DNA of 64,000 nt from Eledone cirrhosa (Eukaryota): NCBI GenBank assembly GCA_964016885.1, contig OZ024740.1, forward strand, positions 33,542,001 through 33,606,000, in the 5' to 3' direction. Shown here piece after piece: positions 62,418 to 63,246 of this stretch (the stretch's first letter is position 1; the number at the start of each line of letters is the position of its first letter). The notes below the pieces were generated by a model. It was not told where the DNA came from, made no database searches, and saw only the letters and a program-made list of their open reading frames with translations. The position numbers and the translations under genes are program-made.

Positions 62418-62812
62418 TTATATATATATATATATATATATTATATATATATATATATTATATATATATATTATATATATATATATATATTATATATATA
62501 TTATATATATATATATATATTATATATATATTATATATATATATATATATATATATATATTATATATATATATATATATATATATATATATATATATATT
62601 ATATATATATATATATATATATTATATATATATATATATATATATATATATATATATTATATATATATATATATATATATTATATATATATATATATATA
62701 TTATATATATATATATATATATATATATATATTATATATATATATATATATATTATATATATATATATATATATATATATATATTATATATATATATATA
62801 TATATATATATA
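62418..62812. repeat. (TA)n microsatellite
   Basis: Direct inspection. Confidence 0.95.
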
Positions 62813-62849
62813 TAATATAAGATCAAAAGATGGTTAAAGGAGTTCAATA

Positions 62850-62920
62850 TATTTTATTATGCGCATTTCAAAAACAAACATCATCAAACAATAATATTTG
62901 TGTTTTCATCAGATAAAACA
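62850..62920 (-). ncRNA. Type I hammerhead ribozyme, mirror copy in the left palindrome arm
   Basis: Exact reverse complement of 63041-63111. Confidence 0.8.
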
Positions 62921-63040
62921 GGAGAACATGATATGAAGGCTAAAAAAACACTTGTTGATAGTGCAGTTTTAAATCAACATATGTTGATTTAAAACTGCAC
63001 TATCAACAAGTGTTTTTTTAGCCTTCATATCATGTTCTCC

Positions 63041-63111
63041 TGTTTTATCTGATGAAAACACAAATATTATTGTTTGATGATGTTTGTTTTTGAAATGCGC
63101 ATAATAAAATA
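63041..63111 (+). ncRNA. Type I hammerhead ribozyme
   Basis: Stem I tgttttat/ataaaata; CUGAUGA at 63049-63055; stem II 63056-63091 (caaatattat/atgatgtttg with G-U pairs); GAAA at 63092-63095; minimal stem III with palindromic UGCGCA; AUA cleavage triplet. Confidence 0.82.
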
Positions 63112-63246
63112 TATTGAACTCCTTTAACCATCTTTTGATCTTATATTATGCATACTCCAGTCCCACAAACTGTAGAGTGCTTCTTATCCGATATCTGCAT
63201 TGCTTTATTGTACTACAATAAAACTCACCTCCTACATATATATATA

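Follow-up and report, generated by a model that had tools for sequence, protein, structure and literature searches.

A perfect palindrome with twin hammerhead motifs in an ABCC10 intron of Eledone cirrhosa: a probable head-to-head insertion of an abundant Penelope-like element

Introduction

A 64,000-nucleotide stretch of the Eledone cirrhosa genome (assembly GCA_964016885.1, contig OZ024740.1, positions 33,542,001 to 33,606,000; hereafter the window, to which all coordinates without a locus prefix refer) contains, in an intron of ABCC10, a perfect palindrome with a hammerhead ribozyme motif on each strand. How did this mirror image arise, and why is a ribozyme motif tolerated inside a host gene? 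The original prediction, made from the sequence alone, read the palindrome as a young insertion of a Penelope-like element (PLE) or a retrozyme, and proposed that the upstream antisense arm locks the ribozyme in an inactive state.

PLE hammerheads, inverted pLTR copies, tails and opposite-strand hammerhead pairs are already in print, the last having been noted at distances of 100-700 bp (PMC4209133). The origin of PLE head-to-head repeats and tails is nevertheless called undefined by Craig et al. (2021, PMC8557442), and self-priming on an antisense template has been proposed by Arkhipova et al. (2013, PMC3846280).

Results

The palindrome spans 62812-63149 without a loop, all 169 bases of its left arm (62812-62980) being complementary to those of its right arm (62981-63149). 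Arm comparison resolves the insertion into two pLTR copies joined head to head at CATATG (62978-62983). We number positions from the A of ATATG, a common arm start site, so that +1 lies at 62979 on the + strand and at 62982 on the − strand and the arms overlap by ATAT. The short arm (− strand, 62812-62982) runs from +1 to an inner 3′ end at about +170 (site B), the long arm (+ strand, 62979-63237) to an outer 3′ end at about +258 (site A), and an 88-nt PLE tail (63150-63237, + strand) is found on the long arm only. A (TA)n array at 62419-62819, identified as the target by repeat analysis and from the (TA)n targeting described in PMC8557442, overlaps the end of the left arm, and a short (TA)n remnant of the target lies on the right (63236-63247; neither tract is assigned a strand). 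The palindrome had been placed between (TA)n tracts, which holds on the left, whereas the right arm continues for 88 nt before the short tract is reached. The exon 5′ of the host intron lies at 53477-53647 (+ strand) and the next one begins about 13.4 kb past the window end (L032:3395), giving an intron of about 23.7 kb. ABCC10 exons on the + strand match octopus ABCC10 at 67-98% (88% for the query exon), in agreement with the predicted host gene.

Just outside the window, the same intron holds about 10 kb of nearly pure (TA)n (L031:1100-10000 and L032:1-2200), either a real expansion or an assembly effect. Large young minisatellites with units of 84, 35 and 24 bp occupy ABCC10 introns at 21844-25282, 35506-37459 and 44900-47350, respectively. 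A LINE on the − strand has endonuclease-like and RT ORFs at 57387-60587 and, at its 5′ end, three 521-bp tandem copies (60784-62400) that are possibly promoter monomers. Another repeat with a (CAT)n tail adjoins the right (TA)n (63248-64000) and has a near-identical copy at about 50080-50700. Read in antisense (− strand), the end of the PLE tail at 63225-63232 gives AG-GTGAGT, a consensus splice donor that could affect host genes carrying the tail in antisense.

On the + strand, the hammerhead motif (63041-63111) has its core nucleotides and three stems in type I order: stem I (63041-63048/63104-63111), CUGAUGA (63049-63055), a stem II of 3+12 bp with three G-U pairs and one C-U mismatch (63056-63091), GAA (63092-63094) and the palindromic stem III AUGCGCAU (63095-63102), with a predicted cut after AUA at 63103 and an overlapping AATAAA at 63103-63108. 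The mirror copy occupies 62850-62920 on the − strand, where CUGAUGA begins at 62912. A hammerhead descriptor matched exactly these two mirror images on both strands of the window; by chance it matched one of 5000 dinucleotide-shuffled arm sequences, and in shuffled windows it matched at a rate of 0.1 per window. The predicted type I order, long G-U-containing stem II, palindromic stem III and overlap with AATAAA were thus all recovered, as was the perfect palindrome with a hammerhead on both strands. The Rfam search, on the other hand, returned no hammerhead match at the gathering threshold or at E ≤ 10; sub-threshold miRNA and snoRNA matches were attributed to the hairpin and to UGAUGA and were rejected.

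Across 38 copies, collected with a core-containing pattern and biased accordingly, the core is near-invariant, with variation mostly at position 7, and 95.5% of stem cells are paired in these chosen copies. Stem covariation among copies does not exceed that of shuffles (316/500). Pairing is kept by 9 of 10 recurrent stem changes versus 3 of 20 rare ones, the single recurrent change that breaks it coming from copies selected for that mutation. RNA folding predicts a classic cross-paired dimer with an 8-bp intermolecular stem III formed through the 8-nt palindrome, as the proposed dimer-type hammerhead would require. Related PLE hammerheads do not cleave as monomers (PMC4209133), and a PLE hammerhead does not cleave without the protein of its element (PMC11167929); by analogy, a single hammerhead of this type is expected to be nearly inactive. 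Sister-family hammerheads with the same core, stem I and AUA site and an unrelated stem II were seen at L084:410-486, L198:1238-1314 and L074:2601-2677.

Arms starting at the predicted cut made up 18 of 30 sampled by script from 234 matches (17 without L144), compared with 11 of 30 sampled from 188 matches and 6 of 30 sampled from 368 at two control sites. This is an enrichment of at most about twofold over the controls and far below the peak at +1; most insertions probably copy uncleaved RNA, as in PMC11167929. At L299:3691-4601, a 339-nt unit start is joined to +124 and the 5′-most copy begins at +125, the predicted cut; this junction may record cleaved and rejoined RNA, or a template jump.

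In a genome-wide pattern search, a 30-mer from the hammerhead had 11,715 exact matches and a 25-mer had 22,318, against none for the reversed controls. The proposed search for a Penelope parent was carried out in twenty wider-spaced or complex loci, one of which has an uninterrupted 821-aa ORF with YRDDG between inverted pLTR copies, so that the inverted pLTR arrangement also proved correct. Uninterrupted 821-aa ORFs occur as well in the tandem or partial-tandem copies L291, L292, L293 and L300, and the family is therefore probably still active. Pfam and PDB sequence searches with the ORF gave no matches; its predicted structure (12-sequence alignment, pLDDT 79) has structures of telomerase RT (TERT) as top Foldseek matches. 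A single ORF with a telomerase-like RT, recognized here by YRDDG and the predicted fold, is what EN+ PLEs carry, and pLTR partial tandems, an inverted 5′ copy and a one-sided tail are present too. Motifs of the GIY-YIG type (LIY...YFG, R, E and N) appear conserved across homologs by eye; the domain gave no profile or fold match.

The element resembles the Hydra-clade PLEs, including Hydra-1_Obim of Octopus bimaculoides (Craig et al. 2021, PMC8557442), in its C-terminal endonuclease (here recognized by its GIY-YIG motifs), its DKT, CxCx5C linker, CxxC and CxH motifs, the absence of a CCHH pair, the (TA)n target, the 3′ hammerhead, the inverted 5′ copy and the one-sided tail. It departs from them, as far as that paper's passages go, in having RWT (in P0001) or RWI (in other copies) at the RWK position, where homologs mostly have RWK or RWR, a unit of about 3.7 kb rather than generally <3 kb, a tail of 88 nt rather than 30-40 nt, and at least 22,000 hammerhead arms with a sharp common 5′ start. 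Its hammerhead has an AUA cut site instead of GUH and a 15-bp stem II when set against those in File S2 of the same paper; because it differs from the one listed there for Hydra-1_Obim, it likely belongs to another family. Relative to the dimer-type hammerheads of metazoan PLEs (Cervera and de la Pena 2014, PMC4209133), with which it shares the conserved core, a short palindromic helix III and a long helix II, the motif, known here from sequence, has A-U rather than G-C at 10.1-11.1 and an 8-nt helix III palindrome. An assignment to Naiad/Chlamys was rejected, the endonuclease motifs being C-terminal, not N-terminal, and a hammerhead motif being present. Judged from these sequence features, the palindrome appears to be a young stub of an abundant PLE with Hydra-clade motifs, and the element is likely a new family of a known clade, assigned to the clade by its motifs and set apart by comparison with the listed hammerheads. 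A young PLE insertion had been predicted, and both the parent ORF and the identity of the arms bear this out.

In a sample of 101 arms from the first 54 Mb of contig 1, an antisense partner lies upstream of 80, and none was found within the retrieved flank for the other 21, one of which has a partner with the cut site deleted. Arm starts fall at −3 to +3 in 31 of 100 cases and extend past −20 in 54. Genome-wide, both arms start near +1 at 1,931 junctions, and the window's exact centre recurs in 19 of 50 junctions among the matches listed. Head-to-head pairing is the normal insertion form of this family. The 3′ end of an arm lies either at about +170 (B) or at about +258 (A, tailed): each centred junction that could be typed combines one A with one B arm (32 of 38, with 6 untyped and no A/A or B/B), and among longer insertions L043 and L089 are exceptions to this pairing. 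Templated upstream sequence is present in 2,420 arms. Older subfamilies share the hot spot at +1, including some whose sequence 5′ of this site is different.

At +1 junctions, 824 arms have G immediately ahead of +1 and 274 have A or T, whereas the template has C. By eye, 100 listed G cases comprised about 48 clearly untemplated ones (including G on both arms), about 38 ambiguous ones, whose G equals the templated C seen from the opposite strand, plus about 14 local duplications. A tally over a mixed set of loci was less rich in G: ahead of an untemplated +1, 13 had G, 22 had T, 15 had C and 6 had A. An extra G at the 5′ junctions of L1-mediated insertions has been read as a trace of the cap (PMC11702581), and transcription start sites of PLEs fall within the pLTR (PMC2377424, PMC8557442). 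On this reading, +1 is probably an RNA 5′ end carrying a cap. RNA runs contain only 4-7% of the query words. In none of 30 tandem copies does the upstream pLTR start at +1, which counts against a simple mRNA-cap model, as this predicts a pile-up there. A circular template should leave copies of exactly one unit, but only 2 of 30 start at the unit start, which does not support a circle. The cap reading and the tandem copies might be reconciled as follows: PLE initiation in vitro requires RNA beyond the start sites on their downstream side (PMC11167929), in which case a linear RNA beginning at +1 could give only stubs, and long copies would need multimeric RNA.

Discussion

The palindrome is, in our judgement, probably a short PLE insertion made of two cDNAs. 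Each would have been primed on one strand of a cut (TA)n target and extended as far as a shared RNA 5′ end, where the two were then linked head to head. The GIY-YIG domain would cut both strands within (TA)n, after which one target strand would prime at internal site A (+258) and the other at site B (+170), which would explain the one-sided tail. Both cDNAs would copy uncleaved RNA through the hammerhead to +1, probably the capped transcription start, and their ends would anneal through the self-complementary ATAT/CATATG, leaving a centre without a loop. The hammerhead, if active at all, would work as a dimer, with RNA of the element itself as its substrate; within the ABCC10 intron it would be a passenger, kept unfolded by the upstream antisense arm as an automatic by-product. 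In vitro, the enzyme of the Anolis Poseidon element PAc cuts and extends both strands, uses uncleaved template RNA and initiates at a pair of internal positions that delimit the tail (Frangieh et al. 2024, PMC11167929), although the passages available give no account of the joining of inverted copies or of a fixed 5′ end with an untemplated G.

Such an insertion could also be built from a single cDNA that, on arriving at +1, folds back on itself at CATATG and is copied again as far as site B, in keeping with the self-priming argued for in the Discussion of PMC3846280. The centre is indeed a natural 6-nt palindrome, fillers such as CATG are self-complementary, and the arms of an insertion are near-identical, with a median of 1 mismatch per 150 nt (n=31), whereas arms from different insertions have 7. 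No diagnostic subfamily difference separates the arms in 35 of 59 short pairs, compared with about 5% for random pairs; arms of one insertion thus usually agree and come from one source, which fold-back or conversion fits equally well. Fold-back cannot, however, yield untailed arms longer on the 5′ side than their tailed partners, as seen in at least 10 long insertions (L036, L037, L041, L044, L046, L047, L048, L050, L052 and L094), which implies that neither arm copies the other and that both were copied from RNA. Nor can it yield arms of two subfamilies, and two of the 59 short pairs have arms of different subfamily haplotypes (L065:1290-1720 and L211:1170-1600), a sequence pattern that points either to a pair of RNA templates or to conversion at a later time. 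Junctions with a G on each arm, and centres whose arms start unequally, likewise speak against fold-back, which we regard as unlikely, and as possible for the short insertion class. A non-autonomous retrozyme, or a mini-element spreading as a palindromic unit, has very little to commend it, although short copies far outnumber tandem full copies (1,931 versus 212 junctions) and L289 has tandem units of about 204 nt beginning near the hammerhead cut. The retrozyme half of the original prediction did not survive: like non-LTR retrozymes, the insertion is a dispersed repeat, short and non-coding, that carries a type I hammerhead, but it has head-to-head single arms instead of tandem monomers and would be a direct stub of an autonomous RT-endonuclease parent whose ORF exists. 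Moreover, centres vary among otherwise identical copies, so the palindrome is rebuilt at each insertion. The tandem at L289:459-1284 (G000:C2, about 216.01 Mb) lies on both arms; its units cover about +128 to the end of the tail together with 71 nt of unit start, and it resembles a derivative of retrozyme type whose start is close to the hammerhead cut.

That the antisense arm silences an otherwise harmful ribozyme, so that locked copies are selected in genes, we consider improbable. In ABCC10 pre-mRNA the antisense arm does come first, as in any head-to-head insertion, followed by the sense hammerhead, and the 169-bp duplex is predicted to abolish the active fold, the probability of which drops from ~1e-2 for the isolated motif to ~1e-71 for the whole insertion; retrozymes are, in addition, depleted in Xenopus introns (preprint 10.64898/2026.07.22.740005). 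The predicted block thus stands, but not as the reason for tolerance: pairing is the default product (80 of 101 arms), so that the lock needs no selection, and copies that lack a lock survive as well (21 of 101). Even in RNA from +1 through the tail without the left arm, the active fold is predicted to be rare (1.6e-4). Monomeric PLE hammerheads are inactive or protein-dependent (PMC4209133, PMC11167929), and the motif under the lock would probably do nothing as a monomer. An assembly or hairpin-read artefact, finally, has next to no probability. The perfect palindrome does adjoin a long (TA)n, and no independent record across the locus was found in four sequencing runs, which are dominated by other family copies. 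Against this, the tail is asymmetric, the ends are family-typical, thousands of similar junctions have varied centres, and contigs from another sequencing run have the arms joined at 62979, two of them listing intervening letters that both end in G.

The preferred reading of two cDNAs joined head to head can be taken further, though only tentatively. The genome would then hold thousands of paired strong-stop cDNA fossils, each made by a PLE dimer copying two sense, capped RNAs from two internal starts on opposite strands, with the cDNAs fused at the cap; the palindromic loop of the hammerhead would serve mainly to pair the RNAs, and long copies would derive from multimeric or circular RNA. If true, this paired reading of capped RNA would account for PLE inverted repeats and tails without an antisense template. 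An untemplated G at the 5′ end is shared with L1-mediated full-length insertions (PMC11702581), whereas in this family it marks the point where two cDNAs of 170-258 nt meet head to head, a site at which full tandem copies do not begin. We found no description of a fixed, G-marked centre for PLE palindromes in the open-licence literature.

As a single locus the palindrome is ordinary; the family bears on how PLEs form head-to-head repeats and tails. The fixed arm start with its excess of untemplated G, the near-strict pairing of tailed with untailed arms, the independent arm lengths and the occasional mixed-subfamily arms point to two cDNAs templated by sense RNA. The twin hammerheads are likely passengers, and their mirror image was likely made by the insertion mechanism rather than kept as a safety lock. 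About 2,000 near-perfect 170-bp hairpins, some of them intronic, would be double-stranded RNA substrates in a cephalopod, a group known for heavy A-to-I editing.
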